64,000 bases of DNA from a virus: the IMG/VR virus record IMGVR_UViG_3300019758_000001, positions 2,597-66,596 of that record, one strand, 5' to 3'. Below the pieces are notes generated by a model. The model made no database searches. It was not told the DNA's origin and saw nothing but the letters and a program-made list of their open reading frames with translations. Of the stretch, positions 5,175 to 21,644 are shown piece after piece (the first letter of the stretch is position 1; every line of letters begins with the position of its first letter). The translations under genes and the position numbers were made by a program.

Positions 5175-5456
5175 ATGACTACTATGGCATCGAAAGCAAG
5201 AATGATAGCAGCTCGCAAGGGTATGATCTCAAAGAAGAAACAGGAAGAAACAAAGAAGGGTGTGATATTTCGCCTAGAGAATCCTGATAATATCGAATAT
5301 AATGACACCTCTATTCTCTACTGCTCAAGTGTTTTGGGAAATTTAGTTTACTGCCCATGTCGAGGTAATGAGTTTATTATCAGTAAGTTTGAGGAGTATA
5401 AAATTAAAGAGGTGATATTAATTGTACTGAAAAACACTGGAGATGCTATCTTATGA
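5175..5456 (+). CDS. Hypothetical protein
   Basis: ATGA overlap with the primase-like gene. Confidence 0.55.
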   Translation: MTTMASKARMIAARKGMISKKKQEETKKGVIFRLENPDNIEYNDTSILYCSSVLGNLVYCPCRGNEFIISKFEEYKIKEVILIVLKNTGDAIL

Positions 5457-6352
5457 AAAAAGAAATAAATTACCACAGCTTATTCGAATCCCTACCTAGA
5501 GTGACTGGGCTTCCTTGGGTTCGTAAAGGTAGAAAGTATTACGGATCATTCTATCTTGATGGTACGAAACATCCCAGACGAGACAAGTCAGTGGCTTACA
5601 TGAAAGGAGATAAGATTGTATTAGTCGAGCAGGGTAAAGGTACGCAGGACTTATGGCAATTATTCTCGGATCGAGGAATAACGGATAAAGAAGTTGGAGA
5701 TTTCTTAAGAAGTGAATCTGACTCTAATTTCGTACCACCTCCATTTGTCGAACCAGAAGTTAAGTATGTATTCAGATCTTCAATGGATAAAACACTAGGG
5801 TTGCATTCTGACAATTTATTTATTTGGCTGTGCAGTTTATTCCCAAGAAAAGATGTAATCCAAACATATAATCTCTACAATGTCGGATCTATGTATAATG
5901 GAAACACTTGCTTTTGGATGATCGATGAGAAGCAAAATATCTGCCACGATAAGATAATGACTTACGATCCCAAGACTGGCAGTAGAGATAAAGGTAGATA
6001 TGGTAATGGTCGTAGATTCCAATATGATTTCGGATTTACTTCTACTCCTGCTTTTGGAGATCATCTTCTTGATAAATTCCACGGACAGAAAATTTATTGT
6101 GTCGAAAGCGAAAAAACAGCATTATTATTCTATTTAACATATAAGAAGTTGTGTATTGCAACATCAGGCTCGTCCTGCTTATATAAAGCAAAGCCAAACC
6201 ACACATTATTAGGCGATTACGATAAAGCAGGAGAGAATTGGTATAACTCTGGAGGTGTAAATTGGTGGGATCATTATGACGAAAAAGTAGAAGACGGTGA
6301 TGATATTGGTGATATTTTAGTAAAAAAAAGACTTAAAATCCTTGCAGGTTAG
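5453..6352 (+). CDS. Primase-like Toprim protein (DUF6371-type)
   Basis: CVESEKTAL and GDYDKAG Toprim motifs, DDIGD, AFGDHLL. Confidence 0.75.
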   Translation: MKKEINYHSLFESLPRVTGLPWVRKGRKYYGSFYLDGTKHPRRDKSVAYMKGDKIVLVEQGKGTQDLWQLFSDRGITDKEVGDFLRSESDSNFVPPPFVEPEVKYVFRSSMDKTLGLHSDNLFIWLCSLFPRKDVIQTYNLYNVGSMYNGNTCFWMIDEKQNICHDKIMTYDPKTGSRDKGRYGNGRRFQYDFGFTSTPAFGDHLLDKFHGQKIYCVESEKTALLFYLTYKKLCIATSGSSCLYKAKPNHTLLGDYDKAGENWYNSGGVNWWDHYDEKVEDGDDIGDILVKKRLKILAG

Positions 6353-7237: not shown

Positions 7238-8470
7238 ATGAAAGAAGAGTTGAAACAGGTATTGAATCTCCCGAAATCGGGGAGGAAGGAAATATCAGAA
7301 CTTCTAGATATACCAGAAGGTAAGGCTAGAAACCTAGTCTTTATTAGGGATAACTACAGTGTGATATCTGAGGTTATGAGTGAAGAGACTCTTAAAATGG
7401 GTCAGAAGTTAGCAGCAAGCAAACAGAAGTTCCAAGACATTAATAGAATCGAAAGAAAGCTTTTTAGGGACGATATAAGGCTATATAATGCTTTATCCGA
7501 ACAAACCTTAGAGTTGACAAACTTATTAAAGCACGAGTCATTTAAAATAGCCACAAACCCATATTCTGAATCAAAGTCTGCACCACATGGTATTTTTCAC
7601 ATTTCAGATCCGCACGGTAACGAGCTTGTATCGCTTCCGCACAATATGTACGACTTTACAATCATGTCGAAACGTGTAGAGAAGCAAGTTAAGGAGTCGA
7701 TTAAGTACTTTAAATCTGATAATGTGACTAACGTAACTGTCTGTATGACAGGAGATATGCTTAATTCTGACAGAAGAAAGGACGAAATTGTTGCGATGGC
7801 TACGAACAGATCATGTGCTCAATTCTTAGTTGCTCAAATCTATATCAATGCGATGCTAGAACTTAATCAGCATTTCAATATCTTCTGCTCTTATGCGGAT
7901 GGCAATGAATCTAGAGTTGGCGAACATATTGGATTTGAAGACACAATCGCATCTGACACTTATGATACTGCAATTTACAATATCTGTAGGATGATGCTTG
8001 ATGATAAAAAGGGCTTTACCTTTGATGACCGACTAGGAGCTAAGAAAGTAATCTCTGTAAATGGACAGAAAGTGCTTTTAATACACGGCCACCAGAAGTT
8101 TGGAGGCGATCCAACAGCAGCAGTTGGTAAGTTGGTTGCTCAATATGCAAAACAAGGAATCAACCTTAGATATGTATTGTTTGGACACCTACATCAAGCG
8201 GTAATTAGTGAGCTTTTTGCAAGATCTGGAAGTACAGTTGGTGCAAATGCATATAGCGAGGATGGATTAGGATTATCAAGTAGAGCAAGCCAGAACGCAT
8301 ATAAGGTTTGGGCTGATGGTAGAATTGATGGTACAATGATTGACCTTCAGGATTATTCGGAATATTTAGGCTATCCAATTCAAAAAGAGCTGGAAATGTA
8401 CAATGTCAAATCAGCATCTAAAGTGAAAGGTGTTAGTATTTACGAAACAGTATTAAGTAATTTGCATTAA
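7238..8470 (+). CDS. Calcineurin-like metallophosphoesterase with N-terminal HTH/coiled coil
   Basis: ISDPH, GDML, GNE, IHGH and FGHLH motifs. Confidence 0.85.
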   Translation: MKEELKQVLNLPKSGRKEISELLDIPEGKARNLVFIRDNYSVISEVMSEETLKMGQKLAASKQKFQDINRIERKLFRDDIRLYNALSEQTLELTNLLKHESFKIATNPYSESKSAPHGIFHISDPHGNELVSLPHNMYDFTIMSKRVEKQVKESIKYFKSDNVTNVTVCMTGDMLNSDRRKDEIVAMATNRSCAQFLVAQIYINAMLELNQHFNIFCSYADGNESRVGEHIGFEDTIASDTYDTAIYNICRMMLDDKKGFTFDDRLGAKKVISVNGQKVLLIHGHQKFGGDPTAAVGKLVAQYAKQGINLRYVLFGHLHQAVISELFARSGSTVGANAYSEDGLGLSSRASQNAYKVWADGRIDGTMIDLQDYSEYLGYPIQKELEMYNVKSASKVKGVSIYETVLSNLH

Positions 8471-8475
8471 AAATC

Positions 8476-8506
8476 AGAAAGGGTGTCGTAACGGCATCCT
8501 TTTCTT
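8476..8506 (+). terminator. Intrinsic terminator
   Basis: AGAAAGGGTGTC-GTAAC-GGCATCCTTTTCT hairpin with T tract. Confidence 0.75.
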
Positions 8507-8518
8507 AAAACAAATAAG

Positions 8519-8833
8519 ATGATAATAGAATTAAAAGAGATTACCCTGAAAATGGGAGAAGAGTTTAAATCAGTAAGTTACCCTGAAGATGGGGTTTATT
8601 TCGTAACAGCATCCCCAAACAACAAGGATCAATCTGCAACCACAAGTATTGTTATGGTTGAAAACGGAGGCATTGCTCTTGGTGGTATTAGCAGAAAAAC
8701 TATAGAGTCTCAGTACGCTCCAAAACCAGAAACTGTAGAAGTTGAGAAGGAGGTGGTAATTAAAGAAATTGGAGGTATTACTGAAGCGACTTTACTTGAG
8801 GCAATGCGAATCGCAGCAGGAACGAAAAAGTAG
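8519..8833 (+). CDS. Hypothetical protein
   Basis: Last ORF of the + strand block. Confidence 0.7.
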   Translation: MIIELKEITLKMGEEFKSVSYPEDGVYFVTASPNNKDQSATTSIVMVENGGIALGGISRKTIESQYAPKPETVEVEKEVVIKEIGGITEATLLEAMRIAAGTKK

Positions 8834-9002
8834 ATTTGCCACCCTCAAAATAAAGTTGTATATTGCAAGTATTACAATACATCTTTTCTTTACTTTTCTT
8901 TTTTTTAGCCATCGGGATTCCTTCTCGGTGGTTTTTTTGTGCTCACATCTGGCGTGTAGACATAAAAAAGCCCAGCTCAATTAAGAACTGGGATTAGCTT
9001 TG

Positions 9003-9323
9003 TTACGGCATTGCGTTTTTCAACAACTCTGAAGATACACCTCTCCGTATATTATTACATTTTTCAATAGTCTCGACTGGATCGTAAAATTCAACACCTT
9101 TTTTTCTGATTTTCTGTAGCTTATATCCATTATGCCCCATCCACCATAAGAAATAGTCTATTGTGAATACGTGAGCATCTACCCAATTAACATCTTCAAG
9201 AACTTTAGTCTCTCCATCTTTCCATTGCCCATAAATAGCTTTGAATAAATCTTTTTGATCGTGGAAATCTTTCATAAAATCAGGCAGATGTTCGCCACCA
9301 TTCATGTACGTTTTTGTATTCAT
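9003..9323 (-). CDS. Hypothetical phage protein
   Basis: HLPDFMKDFHDQKDLFK...FLWWMGHNGY; start adjusted to ATG at 9323. Confidence 0.75.
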   Translation of the reverse strand: MNTKTYMNGGEHLPDFMKDFHDQKDLFKAIYGQWKDGETKVLEDVNWVDAHVFTIDYFLWWMGHNGYKLQKIRKKGVEFYDPVETIEKCNNIRRGVSSELLKNAMP

Positions 9324-9478
9324 ATCTTCTTTTATTTTAGTTTCCTCAAACCTAATCATTATATTCCTAACGACCAAACTTTTGAGCACAAAAAAAAGCG
9401 ACCCTCTCAGATCGCTCGTGATATCCACTAACCTATTCCAGTGTGATATCCTATATGTAATGTACAAAATATTTACGA

Positions 9479-16744: not shown

Positions 16745-17065
16745 TTATTCTTCCTCCTTTAAGTTAGTATATTTCACAAGTAATTCCCTAATTATATCCT
16801 CTAGAGCATCATCGCCCTCGCTTGAAATAGTGACTATATTGCCAAATTCTTCACATTCAACATCAATGTTATCACCAACTGCATCAGATATGCTGTCTAG
16901 AGTGTTTATTATTAAATCCTCGATGTCATCAGCTTTTCTAATCTCATCTAAAGCGTCACAATATCCACCCCAATTATCAACACCAGCAGCTTCTAACGCA
17001 TTCAATACAGCTTCAGATCGCTCCAACTCTTTAAGTCTACTCTTAGTTACTTTTACATCACTCAT
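16745..17065 (-). CDS. Hypothetical protein
   Basis: LNALEAAGVDNWGGY motif, common in phage proteins. Confidence 0.75.
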   Translation of the reverse strand: MSDVKVTKSRLKELERSEAVLNALEAAGVDNWGGYCDALDEIRKADDIEDLIINTLDSISDAVGDNIDVECEEFGNIVTISSEGDDALEDIIRELLVKYTNLKEEE

Positions 17066-17769: not shown

Positions 17770-18348
17770 TTATTTCTCATTACCCCACTCATCCCTAGGT
17801 GTAATGTCAACTCCAATCTTCATCTGGTCGTTTACTTGGCTAAACTTCTTAACACTTTCTCTTATCCCTGCATTAACCTCATTGAGAGCATTAGTCGTAT
17901 TTTCAGTAATTCCCTCAACCACACTTTGTAGATTATATTCGAATACATCCATTATAGGACTCTCGGAAATAGCAGGGGTCTCATATGGCGCAATCATATC
18001 CGAAAGACACTCATCTAAGAACTCGTAGGCATGCTTTACGTTGTTTGCTTCTACTAGCATGTATTCCACTGTCTTCTTTTCTTTCCCACTATCAGAATCC
18101 ACATCAACGAATGTCACCTTAGTCTTAAAGAATCTGTCACCATCTGGATTACGGAATACCTGAGCGATATTAGATGGACTCATATTTGATATAATGAAAT
18201 CTCCTGAGATCATCTTCTCAAACTCCTTAGTCGCTAACGCCTCACCCTCTGTGAATGATACAGCATCGAATAAATAAGGCTCGGTTACCTTCTTAGTTTT
18301 TCCGTCCTCTAATGTTTTTTGGTACTTTACTTTAGTTTCGAACTTCAT
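17770..18348 (-). CDS. DUF4494 domain protein
   Basis: FETKVKYQKT..DGK.KKVTEPYLFDAVSFTEGE...ISESPIMDVF. Confidence 0.9.
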   Translation of the reverse strand: MKFETKVKYQKTLEDGKTKKVTEPYLFDAVSFTEGEALATKEFEKMISGDFIISNMSPSNIAQVFRNPDGDRFFKTKVTFVDVDSDSGKEKKTVEYMLVEANNVKHAYEFLDECLSDMIAPYETPAISESPIMDVFEYNLQSVVEGITENTTNALNEVNAGIRESVKKFSQVNDQMKIGVDITPRDEWGNEK

Positions 18349-18423
18349 CTTATTTTGTTTTAAATTGTTTTACAAATATAATGCACTCTTTTGAGTATTC
18401 CTAATTATTTTTAAGTTTTTTTA

Positions 18424-18648
18424 TCAGAACGGACAATCAGAGGTAATAGGCTTTCTTAATAGTGACCTAAGTCTTTTTAAACTCATAAACTTGCCATCTA
18501 TACAATATCCAATCATTCCATTTTTAGATATTTGCTTTATTCTTCTTCCTGTTCTTAAATTAAAACATTCGTTTAGCTCATTCCATACGTAATAAGGGTG
18601 AGTTGAAAGTTCATATTTTACTGTATAAGTTATTGAAAATGTTTTCGT
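18424..18648 (-). CDS. 74-aa basic protein without an N-terminal ATG (ACG start or pseudogene), next to the attI-like site
   Basis: Open frame TKTFSITYTVKYEL...CFNLRTGRRIKQ..NGMIGYCIDGKF.SL..LR...DCPF*; absent from the ORF track. Confidence 0.6.
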   Translation of the reverse strand, partial: TKTFSITYTVKYELSTHPYYVWNELNECFNLRTGRRIKQISKNGMIGYCIDGKFMSLKRLRSLLRKPITSDCPF

Positions 18649-18679
18649 TGATAGGAAGTTAAAGTTGTTTTATAAAGTA

Positions 18680-18838
18680 GTTACATGGCATTAGTCGAGT
18701 CTGGTTATTTTGTTTACTATTATGTTTTTAAACCCATTGTCTTCCAGCACCCTTACTGCGTCTTTGAGATTCTCGGCGTAAAACAAGTAATTGTCGTAGT
18801 CGTATTTGATCTTTATCATGCTTTTAACGCCATGTAAC
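18680..18838. mobile_element. Integron-like gene cassette 1 (42-aa ORF at 18691-18819, minus strand)
   Basis: Bounded by perfect inverted boxes GTTACATGGC (18680-18689) and GCCATGTAAC (18829-18838). Confidence 0.75.
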
Positions 18839-18923
18839 AACACCTAAATTGTATTGCCATGGTCTTTATTGGTTATTTGAAGTGTTTTTGGTCGGCAACA
18901 CAACTTAGCCTTGTCCATTAGAG
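18832..18923 (+). repeat. attC-like site
   Basis: TAAC, 5-nt spacer, arm CTAAATTGTATTGCC / arm GGCAACACAACTTAG, then ATTAGAG. Confidence 0.75.
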
Positions 18924-18956
18924 ATCATAACGCTAGCAAGCTAGCTTAAAATTCCT

Positions 18957-19136
18957 TCATTTATAAATTCTCTTATATCCGTTGTTTTTTAAAGCTCTAT
19001 CAATTAATCGCAAATTTCTAGTTGCTTCAATTGTGAAGTCACCACCTTCACCACACATAGCACTTATGGTATCGGCAACATCTAAGAATGCCAAAAATTG
19101 TGCTTGAGTTAATTCTAATTTTATCTTTTTCGCCAT
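18957..19136 (-). CDS. 59-aa cassette-borne hypothetical protein
   Basis: MAKKIKLELTQAQF...YKRIYK*; flanked by ATTAGAGATCATAA and TTATGATCAAC. Confidence 0.7.
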   Translation of the reverse strand: MAKKIKLELTQAQFLAFLDVADTISAMCGEGGDFTIEATRNLRLIDRALKNNGYKRIYK

Positions 19137-19234
19137 GATTATAATTTATAAATTCTCGGTCTTATTATGATCAACGCTAAAAAACAAGTATTGTACATAA
19201 TTTTAAGGTCAAAACATTCAAGAAAAAGCGCAGC

Positions 19235-19620
19235 GCATAACAATATGCATAAATAATGCGCTGGCTCTCGTATCAACCTATCCCCCTCTCACGTGTGATC
19301 ATTTAATGGCACAAGGGTTTCTGGGCGCACTCCCTACCCATTCTGCACCATCATACACAACTGGGAAGTAAACAAATTTTTCACCCCATGCTGTAAAGTA
19401 TGCACCCTTGCTCCCACCGTAGCCATCATTAAACTCTTCTATGAGTTCTGCATCTGTTAGCGTAGTTTGCATCTTTGTAAAATCATCCCCACGCACATTA
19501 AATTCTTCTTGTAGTATTTCTTTCCAATTTGCCATCGCTCTTAAATTTTAAAGTTTATATTCTCGTTTCAACATTTCTGCGTATTTGTAAAGCACACTAT
19601 TCACACATTCAACGTTACAT
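19235..19620 (+). repeat. Long attC-like element enclosing a gene
   Basis: GCATAAC...ATGCATAAATAATGCGCT (19245-19262) pairs with AGCACACTATTCACACAT (19591-19608)...GTTACAT. Confidence 0.7.
19299..19535 (-). CDS. Hypothetical protein inside the attC-like loop
   Basis: FNDGYGG..G..FTAWGEKFVYFPVVYDGAEWVGSAPRNP. Confidence 0.8.
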   Translation of the reverse strand: MANWKEILQEEFNVRGDDFTKMQTTLTDAELIEEFNDGYGGSKGAYFTAWGEKFVYFPVVYDGAEWVGSAPRNPCAIK

Positions 19621-19712
19621 CTTTCACACTACAAACATACAACACATAAATCACGTGAACAAATAAATCCCCCGCAACTTTCATTACGAGGGATTATTTA
19701 TATTCATTCTAA

Positions 19713-20168
19713 TTAAAGTTTCTCGTCTAAAATCGAGTTAAGAACTTCATTTTTAAGGATATATGGGTTTCCGTCATACCATCCTTTTTCTTTGATTAAA
19801 TCTTGCATCGCTTTCCTTTCAGTTGGTCGAACAAAGCTTCTGCGCTCCAATTCCAAGTGAGCTTCATCCCAGATCTCTTCAATATCCTTCTGCCTTTGAG
19901 CTTCTGCAGCCATTTTCTGCAACTCCTCTAATTTACTCTCGGCTGTTTTCTCTACGACTGGAGCGTCATAATAAAACTGCAACACTTTTCGGATACGATA
20001 TCTGAATCCTTTATCCTTTACACATCTACCATTTTTATAGATAGCGAAATCATCTTTCCCGAACTCTCGCTCTACTTTAGCAATACACTCAACACCCTCT
20101 GGATATTCATCTACCTTAGACGGCAGGGATTTGAGTTTGTACATTTTTAGCACTTCTTGTCTCTTCAT
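19713..20168 (-). CDS. Hypothetical protein
   Basis: ORF overlapping the portal 3' end. Confidence 0.65.
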   Translation of the reverse strand: MKRQEVLKMYKLKSLPSKVDEYPEGVECIAKVEREFGKDDFAIYKNGRCVKDKGFRYRIRKVLQFYYDAPVVEKTAESKLEELQKMAAEAQRQKDIEEIWDEAHLELERRSFVRPTERKAMQDLIKEKGWYDGNPYILKNEVLNSILDEKL

Positions 20169-21591
20169 CTTCTATTTGTTTGGTTAATCGCTCCACTTCT
20201 TCGGGAGTCGCATATTCATTTATTTCCGCAGCAGTCTCTTTGGATAATACACTAGCTTGCGTCAATAGTGCAATCTTCTGAGCTACTTCCATTGTATTTG
20301 CAGGAACATATACATCAATCTCAGAGATAACATCCAACTTCTTCATGTCAGTACTTCTACCTTGCTCCATCCCCATACCTTCCATTGTAATCGATTCGAT
20401 TTGATTCAGGAAGCTATGATAATTAGGAGCTTTATCTAACGCATATTGGATTGCAGGATTGTAGTAATTTCTAATCGCTGCACCTGTAATATCACCACCT
20501 TTAAGATCTGCGTTTCTAATAATAACAGTTCCAGTGATATCAAATAATTGATCAAAGTATGTCTCAATCTCATACTTAAATCCTGGACTTACATCGTTCT
20601 GTTCCAGTAACTTAGCCTCTGAATTCTCTTCACCTAAGATAACTTTTCCTTGAGTTCCCTTTGCAGGTAAAACTTCAATATCACCAGTAAGAGATAATAT
20701 TCCAAGTGCGAAATAAGCATCAGATTCTCGAAGGTCAGATAAGGTTCTTTCAAGTGTCTCAATCAACTCCTGCCCATCCCCCCATGCTACATCTGCGTTG
20801 CGCTGATATGCTACAGGAACTTGTGTGAATCCATGAGCAGCAGAGTCAATGAGAGTCCATCTTTCGTCCTTTAATCCTAGATACTCTAAAGTCCTAGCGA
20901 ATCCACTCTTCTTCTCATCTGATAACTGAGCGTAAGTTTCAACCTTTCTTTCTGAGATAACGTCAATAGTATCTACAGTCACATCTTCGTAGGTTGACTT
21001 GTATCTGCGAACAAAATACTCGAGAGTTGAGCCATCTTTGTGATAGGTTGGAATAAGTGAATCTCCATTTTCATAAGACCATACATTCCACTTCAATCTA
21101 CCTTTCTTATCCTTGAAGAAATATACTGCACCATCACCTGTATTTAGAGCGGATTTAATCCCTAAGTACATTGCTTGATGAACACCTTTAGATTTGCGAT
21201 ATTCCTTGTAATCGATAAATAAGTCACCATCCGACTTTTTAGTTGCCGTAAGTTTTGGAGCATTACCGATAAGATGAACTGCTTGTTTGAGCGAAATCAT
21301 CTTCTGTAATGACAATCCAACTCTAGATACTAGTTCCTTTCTTACGAAATTCCCTTCCTCGTCACTAACTACTTTATCAGGATATATCGATGTATTGTAT
21401 ATTTTATGTCCTCTAACGTCATATTCAGCAGCAAATTCAGCTTGAGTCATCTCGATATAACGAGTCTCTGGAGCTAATACTTCACTGTAGGCTACGCTTC
21501 CTATTACCGATTTCTTTTGCTCCTTTTTCGCCTCGGGAGCTGCTTGCCTAACGAAAGGCTTTTTAACTAATAATTTATTGACTTGACTCAT
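20116..21591 (-). CDS. Portal protein (SPP1 gp6-like)
   Basis: About 490 aa, downstream of TerL; HGFTQVPV, GDITGAAI, LSKETA motifs. Confidence 0.88.
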   Translation of the reverse strand: MSQVNKLLVKKPFVRQAAPEAKKEQKKSVIGSVAYSEVLAPETRYIEMTQAEFAAEYDVRGHKIYNTSIYPDKVVSDEEGNFVRKELVSRVGLSLQKMISLKQAVHLIGNAPKLTATKKSDGDLFIDYKEYRKSKGVHQAMYLGIKSALNTGDGAVYFFKDKKGRLKWNVWSYENGDSLIPTYHKDGSTLEYFVRRYKSTYEDVTVDTIDVISERKVETYAQLSDEKKSGFARTLEYLGLKDERWTLIDSAAHGFTQVPVAYQRNADVAWGDGQELIETLERTLSDLRESDAYFALGILSLTGDIEVLPAKGTQGKVILGEENSEAKLLEQNDVSPGFKYEIETYFDQLFDITGTVIIRNADLKGGDITGAAIRNYYNPAIQYALDKAPNYHSFLNQIESITMEGMGMEQGRSTDMKKLDVISEIDVYVPANTMEVAQKIALLTQASVLSKETAAEINEYATPEEVERLTKQIEDEETRSAKNVQTQIPAV

Positions 21592-21644
21592 AAGCTGTAA
21601 TATAATGAAAATATGGGAGACTAGCAAAGTAGTCTCCCTTGTGA

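Follow-up and report, generated by a model that had tools for sequence, protein, structure and literature searches.

The window analysed here is a stretch of 64,000 nucleotides of virus DNA, bases 2597-66596 of the IMG/VR record IMGVR_UViG_3300019758_000001, which is 66,596 bp long with direct terminal repeats and is rated 100% complete. It holds a small-gene slot of a Bacteroidota-type virulent phage, in which an inverted repeat frames one small open reading frame (ORF), ORF1, with a hairpin on its 5' side and a conserved 74-aa gene, ORF0, on its 3' side. The genes around this region all lie on the minus strand of the window, which is called the sense strand below. We found that the frame recurs in several unrelated phages with different letters that remain complementary, that its wobble pair forms on one strand only, and that homology between phages breaks at its TAAC end. 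We propose that frames and hairpins, as elements folded on the sense strand, mark the junctions where phages exchange small genes and probably also bring them about, a reading to which we give a probability of roughly 40%. An original prediction, made from the letters of the window alone, had described the region as an integron-like cassette array in a phage that encodes no integron integrase and borrows the IntI of its host; its cassette geometry was borne out, and its assignment to integrons was not.

The boxes quoted by that prediction, GTTACATGGC at 18680-18689 and GCCATGTAAC at 18829-18838, are present in the window, as are ATTAGAGATCATAA at 18917 and TTATGATCAAC at 19165, the strings given for a second cassette. 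On the minus strand, the distal arm of the frame (18825-18838, GTTACATGGCGTTA, of the form GTTA-N6-GTTA) and the proximal arm (18680-18693, TAATGCCATGTAAC) pair over 14 nt, with 10 perfect pairs, a G.T pair at position 11, and three more pairs. The proximal arm holds the stop codon of ORF1, and its TAAC is the first conserved part of the ORF0 module. The cargo of the frame is ORF1 (18691-18819, minus), with 42 aa from its ATG (42-50 aa overall) and the ATG 19 nt past GTTA; no Pfam or PHROGs family was found for it, and the one relative found was a 98% identical variant. The structure that had been called an attC site is a sense-strand hairpin 5' of the frame (18844-18908, minus) with a 15-bp stem, in which arms of 14-15 nt (18844-18858 and 18894-18908) with two mismatches enclose a 35-nt loop. 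As had been claimed, both mismatches become G.T(U) pairs on the minus strand, giving 16 contiguous pairs, and the fold forms on what was then called the bottom strand, which is the window's minus strand and the strand of the ORFs. At the foot of the hairpin, TAAT (18917-18920) pairs with GTTA (18835-18838), including a T.G pair, on the sense strand. The hairpin core folded as RNA at -18.64 kcal/mol (z -2.49), and the minimum-energy RNA fold as well as the centroid fold contains this hairpin together with the 14-bp stalk. Folded as single-stranded DNA, the site reached -8.9 kcal/mol (z -0.45) with a 33-nt open loop, and 65 of 200 shuffles folded equally well. ORF1 was also considered as a miniature transposon (MITE) and rejected, with no further inverted-repeat copy in the window and no target duplication seen.

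Within the window alone, the features named by the original prediction do not exceed chance. Perfect 10-bp inverted repeats with a gap of 50-300 numbered 33 versus 24.3±4.4 expected, and GTT../..AAC 10-mers with a gap of 50-1500 numbered 4 versus 2.85±1.64, a count reached in 9 of 40 simulations. Hairpins with 14-nt arms numbered 18 versus 16.8±4.8, and those with 16-nt arms and at most two mismatches 14 versus 6.4±3.4.

Nevertheless, the first box pair is not a product of chance, because other phage contigs repeat the frame with covarying letters. For the same reason the cassette geometry is real and recurrent: units begin with letters complementary to those with which they end, GTT and AAC are invariant, and other integrase-less phages carry the same arrangement. 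The consensus of the frame on the sense strand is 5'-GTTA-N6-GTT(A/T), 18-19 nt, ATG, one small ORF, (stop) AAT-N6'-TAAC-3'. The N6 letters vary among phages yet stay complementary, and the G.T pair at position 11 forms on the sense strand only. ORF0 was present in 11 IMG/VR loci (L021-L031), and the boxes were compared in the six loci with enough upstream flank (the window, L021, L022, L023, L024, and L027). The 10-nt box ending in TAAC has an upstream reverse complement at 10 of 10 positions in the window, L022, L023, and L027 and at 9 of 10 in L021; the weakest of the six loci, L024, has an 8-nt partner only, without extension. The letters of the boxes are all different (GCCATG, AAGCCA, GGTTTA, and GCCCTA). 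Perfect GTTA../..TAAC 10-mers with a gap of 60-1200 numbered 8 in the 11 loci versus 1.06±1.06 expected (0 of 200 simulations reached 8), and five control phage loci had none. The strict signature, GTTA-N6-GTT with AAT-N6'-TAAC and a G.T pair at position 11, was matched four times, always on the sense strand of ORF0, and was absent from the opposite strands, from nine control loci, and from 100 shuffles.

Each of these frames encloses one different small ORF (42-85 aa), except the first frame of L022, which encloses none. The cargo ATG was found at +18 or +19 in four of the five ORF-bearing frames (the window, L023, L027, and the genome G001). In the window, L022, L023, L027, and G001, the frames have a hairpin with an AAC...GTT foot on their 5' side, and the stem mismatches inspected by eye were all G.T pairs on the sense strand (5 of 5). 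At the level of whole genomes (G001-G003 and the window), pairs with 14-nt arms numbered 41 versus 14.7±5.3, with a simulation maximum of 29. Three more units in G001 carry the signature complete or nearly so, and at the end of this genome small ORFs follow one another in an array, all of them closing with ..TAATG[C/G]CCTATAAC or ..GGTAAC. L027 and G001 agree in their boxes and 5' leader, have similar hairpins ahead of the frame, and encode unrelated cargo proteins. Moreover, frames occur at a distance from ORF0 (G001 666-1163 and 51045-51786) and without it (L022 5363-5527). The L022 frame lies in a 390-nt noncoding stretch (5316-5704) 3' of a DNA methyltransferase gene; this stretch, an ORF-less unit with a large folded site, contains a 20-bp long-range helix (5363-5382 with 5508-5527), an 11-12-bp helix (TAACGTTCGACC/GGTCGAACGTTA) around about 160 nt, and repeated GTGCTGC motifs.

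The homology breakpoint falls at the box, as had been predicted. ORF0 (18424-18648, minus; stop-to-stop frame 18424-18669) belongs to a phage gene family of which we found 12 relatives, each of 74 aa and 63-82% identical, with no match in Pfam or PHROGs. The conserved leader of the ORF0 module (18649-18679, minus) aligns with the leaders of nine other loci and is the platform that the first GTT had been said to abut. DNA similarity to the window starts 20-45 nt 5' of the ORF0 start, in six loci at 18670-18694, and the first invariant letters of the alignment are TAAC, the end of the box GCCATGTAAC read on the minus strand. The leaders of L026 and L028 are identical, and the letters ahead of their TAAC differ. 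None of eight other window proteins tested was found in the 11 ORF0 loci. Where the portal (P0026) is 40% identical, ORF0 (P0033) is 75% identical, both being listed with a longest contig of 51,888 nt; because of these identities, ORF0 is far better conserved, or more mobile, than the structural genes. In the window itself ORF0 has ACG at 18646-18648 (minus) where all aligned relatives have ATG, and the remaining frame is intact; either the start codon has been lost, or translation starts at a non-AUG codon, or the assembly is wrong here.

In real integron arrays, too, units have complementary starts and ends, a relation that extends over 10-14 nt in the window, L022 (two units), L023, and L027. 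The second unit of G001 is an exception, with a start that does not pair with its own end, and the chain rule therefore does not hold throughout. Rfam has no attC family, and attC models were therefore built by ourselves from sites in the phage records MH445380, MZ568829, and MK672802, which were named as integron carriers by Qi et al. (2023). Model R2 was made from nine sites (7-bp R box and 6-bp L box) and model R3 from 40 matches of the R2 search; model R1, built on four 60-nt sites that were nearly identical, proved too narrow to be kept, and MAFFT alignments of mixed attC sites (A6-A8) were left unused with their L boxes misaligned. R2 recovered 6 of 6 held-out class 1 sites at 13.2-27.8 bits, as well as held-out Shewanella sites. 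R3 scored its own set at 20-68 bits, and in Tetrasphaera phage TJE1 it found three sites after orf1-orf3 (23.6, 22.0, and 17.4 bits), which agree with three attC sites in the published figure legend, a control that rests on legends and text. In Polaribacter phage P12002L, R3 found neither of the two sites reported in the published text, so that sites of an atypical kind may escape it.

Running these home-made models, as the original prediction had suggested for the attC model, revealed no attC site within 18600-19700, where the best R3 score was 7.1 bits from an R box alone. The best R3 match anywhere in the window (12.9 bits, E 1.7) is 25 nt long and lies outside the region, and the sites of L023 and L027 scored 13-15 bits (E ~1-2) versus 17-68 bits for real sites. 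The bottom strands of eight real attC sites fold as DNA with z between -2.07 and -7.69 and are almost fully paired, whereas the window site (z -0.45) has an open loop in place of the rod-like fold, with its extrahelical bases and unpaired spacer; the L027 site, for its part, is arranged as R / internal loop / L. R'' (consensus RYYYAAC) reads ATGTAAC, but R' reads ATTAGAG and begins with ATT, not with the GTT of G|TTRRRY. As had been noted, there is no tyrosine recombinase, PF00589 having no match in the entire 66.6-kb genome. Because the best attC score is 7.1 bits and no tyrosine recombinase is present, the region is not a canonical integron or attC array. An orientation of the ORFs against the attC polarity is likewise unsupported, since this idea rested solely on calling 18832-18923 an attC, and the box pair is symmetric and therefore fixes no polarity. 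There was no evidence for the borrowing of a host IntI, which is also unlikely a priori, because complete integrons are 93% gamma-Proteobacterial and a single one, that of Salinibacter ruber M1, is named for Bacteroidetes proper in the accessible part of the IntegronFinder 2.0 report (PMC9024848).

So, on the reading that we prefer, the slot would hold a frame around at least ORF1 with ends that pair over 14 nt, the hairpin just 5' of it would use the same AAC/GTT foot, and the ORF0 module would follow just 3'. Single small genes would then be exchanged between phages at the folded sites, with the crossover at or near AAC|GTT at the foot. The enzyme may be one of the host or of the phage, and the folded molecule may be single-stranded DNA or RNA; both the recombination at the frames and the nature of this molecule are what we infer. 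A more far-reaching form, which we consider unlikely, is that virulent Bacteroidota-type phages have a gene-capture system of their own, with folded sense-strand sites, crossover at AAC|GTT, ORF0 as its platform, and no tyrosine integrase, an analogue of integrons that would have arisen or diverged outside IntI/attC.

A number of observations weigh against the exchange of genes at folded sites, beginning with the missing attC sites of the region, the low scores of L023 and L027, and the exceptional second unit of G001. No recombination joints were found in contigs of four other runs, which are fragmentary and of low depth and are not evidence of absence, and the contigs that bridge the boxes are identical to the window (X5 at 18442-19287, X3 at 17884-18976, and X8 at 18526-19019). 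No second copy of any cargo ORF was found, and searches with the L027 and L023 cargo returned their own loci only; thus, movement of a unit was not seen. The swap of cargo between L027 and G001 in a constant frame fits recombination from frame to frame, or selection of the frame, better than the movement of whole cassettes. No tyrosine or serine recombinase was found in five other frame-bearing contigs, one of them a complete genome; the serine recombinase of the window genome (54805-55578) is thus absent from them. The corresponding slot of a relative with 56% portal identity has neither frames nor attC matches, and L003-L005 gave no attC matches. Finally, the G.T pairs of the sense strand fit an RNA structure equally well.

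This last point leads to the explanation that survives best beside ours, in which the elements act in RNA only. The stalk, reaching from the 5' untranslated region to the region of the stop codon, would be an element of the mRNA under selection, and so would the intergenic hairpins, serving as processing stalks for a double-strand RNase, in translational control, or as terminators, and the swapping would be ordinary illegitimate or homologous recombination with junctions that are sharp because the functional units are sharp. The wobble is fixed and every inspected stem mismatch is G.U on the sense strand, and one arm lies at -19..-6 relative to the ATG and the other on the stop codon, with exactly one cistron between them. 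The RNA folds (z -2.06 and -2.49) and the centroid, which retains both helices, speak for it as well, as do a DNA fold no better than shuffles, the L027 and G001 frames kept around differing cargo, and the lack of a recombinase in the other genomes examined. What makes us hold this explanation as possible but doubtful is that the complementarity is 10 of 10 with unrelated letters in each phage and no intermediates seen, for which reason the arms look templated rather than slowly selected. Moreover, the ORF0 breakpoint lies exactly at TAAC even between the near-identical L026 and L028 leaders, and an Rfam search of 18300-19800 at E up to 10 gave nothing relevant.

It is very improbable that ORF0 is instead a selfish gene related to homing endonucleases that inserts at hairpin feet, with the frames as by-products of its choice of target. 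The gene does occur in unrelated contexts with sharp ends, and it is 75% identical in a phage with a 40% identical portal. A lead to NUMOD4 came from an atlas (score 0.85, family on 44% of that cluster) and is weak; our first impression of a NUMOD4 motif in ORF0 had no other basis and was rejected. However, the 74-aa protein has no nuclease domain and no Pfam or PHROGs match, and there are frames far from ORF0, in G001, and without it, in L022.

The proposal of the original prediction, a true integrase-less integron array (CALIN) recombined by the IntI of the host, we now regard as highly improbable. A CALIN is defined, in the accessible part of the source, as an array without a nearby integrase that has at least two attC sites within 4 kb (Cury et al. 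2016, PMC4889954), and CALINs with attC sites usable by IntI1 have a published precedent in virulent phages, including a Polaribacter phage, in the part available of Qi et al. (2023, PMC9892861). In favour of the proposal are the geometry of the cassettes, with AAC/GTT feet, and the weak model matches, which land on the actual sites of L023 and L027; the failure of the model on both P12002L sites leaves room for atypical ones. Against this stand scores of at most 7.1 bits in the region versus 17.4-23.6 in TJE1 and 13-28 for held-out sites, the ATT of R', a 35-nt open loop without extrahelical bases, a DNA fold of z -0.45 versus -2.1 to -7.7 for eight real sites, and the rarity of integrons in Bacteroidetes.

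Chance with ordinary mosaicism, that is, a moron-type slot with meaningless repeats or, in a variant, ORF1 as an invertible switch, is hardly tenable: the within-window statistics are at chance level, the slot borders are conserved while five different genes occupy the slot of relatives, and the genome has a serine recombinase, but in the comparison of loci none of 200 and none of 100 shuffles match the observed counts, which had already disfavoured it, the position of the G.T pair is fixed, the other genomes examined have no recombinase, the contigs show no strand-changing joints (a weak point, from contigs only), and the differing boxes and cargo argue against frames shared by descent among the 11 loci.

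The slot has the properties of a moron or accessory slot, with conserved flanks, content that varies among relatives, and its own terminator and promoter match. It is bounded by the portal gene (20116-21627, minus, phrog_64) and the DUF4494 gene (17770-18348, minus), and a 151-aa gene (minus) stands between portal and ORF3 in gene order. The left border (19632-19695, minus) consists of an intrinsic terminator (19666-19695, z -5.01) followed by a Bacteroidota-type promoter match (19632-19663) of the form TTTG-N20-TATGTTTG, and both are kept in a relative with a 56% identical portal. The Bacteroidota promoter consensus is TTTG-N19-21-TAnnTTTG, and this pattern has 11 matches in the window versus 2.35±1.61 expected. 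The right border is the -7 box TATATTTG (18373-18380, minus) with its leader before the DUF4494 gene; this border is kept in the relative L005. In L003-L005, the contigs with 56% portal identity, the portal is followed by a 185-aa gene, then by five other small genes in tight packing, and then by DUF4494; a scan for the boundary pattern returned the same three contigs as the portal search. In L003 (IMGVR_UViG_3300019758_000063), the stretch 8262-9337 has a DUF4494 C-terminus unlike that of L005, followed by a class II fumarase/aspartase-like ORF; either the phage DNA joins cellular DNA here or the contig is chimeric. In other sources there are portal relatives of 67-78% identity, and the searches of IMG/VR and JGI contigs gave relatives of 56% identity only. 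The closest cultured portals, at most 29% identical, are those of Parabacteroides, Bacteroides, Riemerella, and Cellulophaga phages. The phage genome is contained in whole or in part in 12 microbial-mat runs.

Two further small genes occupy the slot. ORF2 (18957-19136, minus) has 59 aa and belongs to phrog_21778, with relatives in Cellulophaga phages; ORF3 (19299-19535, minus) has 78 aa and belongs to phrog_21631, with relatives in Mycobacterium and Curtobacterium phages. The GC content of ORF3 (0.418 versus 0.361 in the window) is at the 95th percentile, a weak signal of foreign origin. The second cassette of the original prediction is present around ORF2 in so far as GTTGATCATAA (19165-19175) faces TTATGATCtctAAT (18917-18930) on the minus strand, but this frame is weak, with eight complementary bases and a 3-nt gap. 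The collapsed attC that was said to follow it is a terminator-like hairpin with a T-run 3' of ORF3 (about 19220-19265, minus, z -1.96); with a loop of more than 8 nt, it was passed over by a simple terminator scan. An AAC|GTT junction without a hairpin body, ATGTAAC|GTTGAAT, lies in the leader of ORF3 (19607-19620, minus), and ATGTAAC has seven matches in the window, three of them inside 18680-19620. ORF2 is flanked by the two perfect copies of a 14-nt direct repeat (18959-18972 and 19144-19157), which reads GAGAATTTATAAAT on the minus strand; one copy overlaps the stop codon and the other lies 7 nt 5' of the ATG. We rejected it as a genome-wide regulatory motif, there being two exact copies in total; direct repeats of at least 14 nt with a spacing of 20-1500 numbered 10 in the window versus 0.72±0.71 expected.

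Elsewhere in the genome, 36 kb from the slot, there is a small serine recombinase of 257 aa (54805-55578, minus; PF00239, 83.7 bits), and the description of the phage as lacking an integrase is therefore true for tyrosine recombinases only. In the early region around it (54580-56360), TCGTTCGTTCG-type repeats (CGAACGAACGA on the minus strand) stand directly upstream of several start codons. They were rejected as recombination sites, lying just 5' of start codons, and are probably shared leaders. A noncoding stretch at 62910-63180 is crowded with ACAGAAC/GTTCTGT heptamers in both orientations, and 8 of the 14 exact copies in the window lie in 62916-63157. It adjoins a promoter match (63200-63231) near a turn of the GC skew and is a candidate for an iteron-like origin or a regulatory region. 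An R2 match at 62933-63004 falls in this ACAGAAC repeat array and was discarded, as R3 did not recover it. At 16745-17065 (minus) there is a gene for a 106-aa protein with an N-terminus matching the T7 gp5.9 RecBCD inhibitor (PF25708, 52.4 bits), next to an exonuclease-like gene (phrog_149).

The gain and loss of small accessory genes by phages is largely unexplained, and many of these genes are anti-defence or host-takeover genes. A frame that sits on homology breakpoints around unrelated genes in unrelated phages would give their exchange a defined site. If the frames are recombined, they would be a second cassette-type system in phages beside integrons and promoter-early stem-loop (PeSL) cassettes, and a practical handle on cargo genes in metagenomes. 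If they act in RNA only, Bacteroidota phages would have a new, per-cistron architecture of their mRNA.

Morons and accessory slots of tailed phages lie between conserved genes and vary in content among relatives. They are not known to carry a covarying frame or terminal inverted repeats of a defined kind. ORF3 resembles a moron in that a promoter match lies 5' of it and a terminator-like hairpin 3'. The nearest phage precedent is the PeSL cassettes of T4-type phages, reportedly treated by Comeau and colleagues in 2014. Both are short structured intergenic motifs between small nonessential genes in hyperplastic regions, both coincide with junctions of insertion, deletion, and replacement and need no dedicated recombinase, and the gene-end motif of G001 repeats after successive genes. 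In contrast, PeSLs, described as regulatory cassettes in the accessible part of Arbiol et al. (2010, PMC2839356), are conserved direct repeats that comprise promoter and terminator and recombine by homology; here the letters vary between units with complementarity kept, the inverted repeat encloses the gene, and no promoter was recognised within the frames.

With integrons and CALINs the frame shares one promoterless small ORF per unit, a unit start complementary to its end with GTT/AAC invariant, folded sites with AAC...GTT feet and variable loops between units that fold on one strand only, and the lack of an integrase nearby. It differs in that the region fails the attC covariance model, and most of its sites are without the layout of unpaired central spacer and extrahelical bases. 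The arms are of 10-14 nt here and of 7 nt in integrons; the strand is marked by a G.T pair here and by bulged bases there; and folding takes place here on the strand that is sense for the ORFs, and a conserved 74-aa gene, not intI, adjoins the first GTT. Moreover, the hosts here are Bacteroidota, in which integrons are rare, and recombination is a proposal. A literature search found no comparable inverted-repeat frame, which is not proof that none has been published. Taken by analogy, the frame resembles an integron cassette array in its geometry and the PeSL cassettes in its genomic setting.

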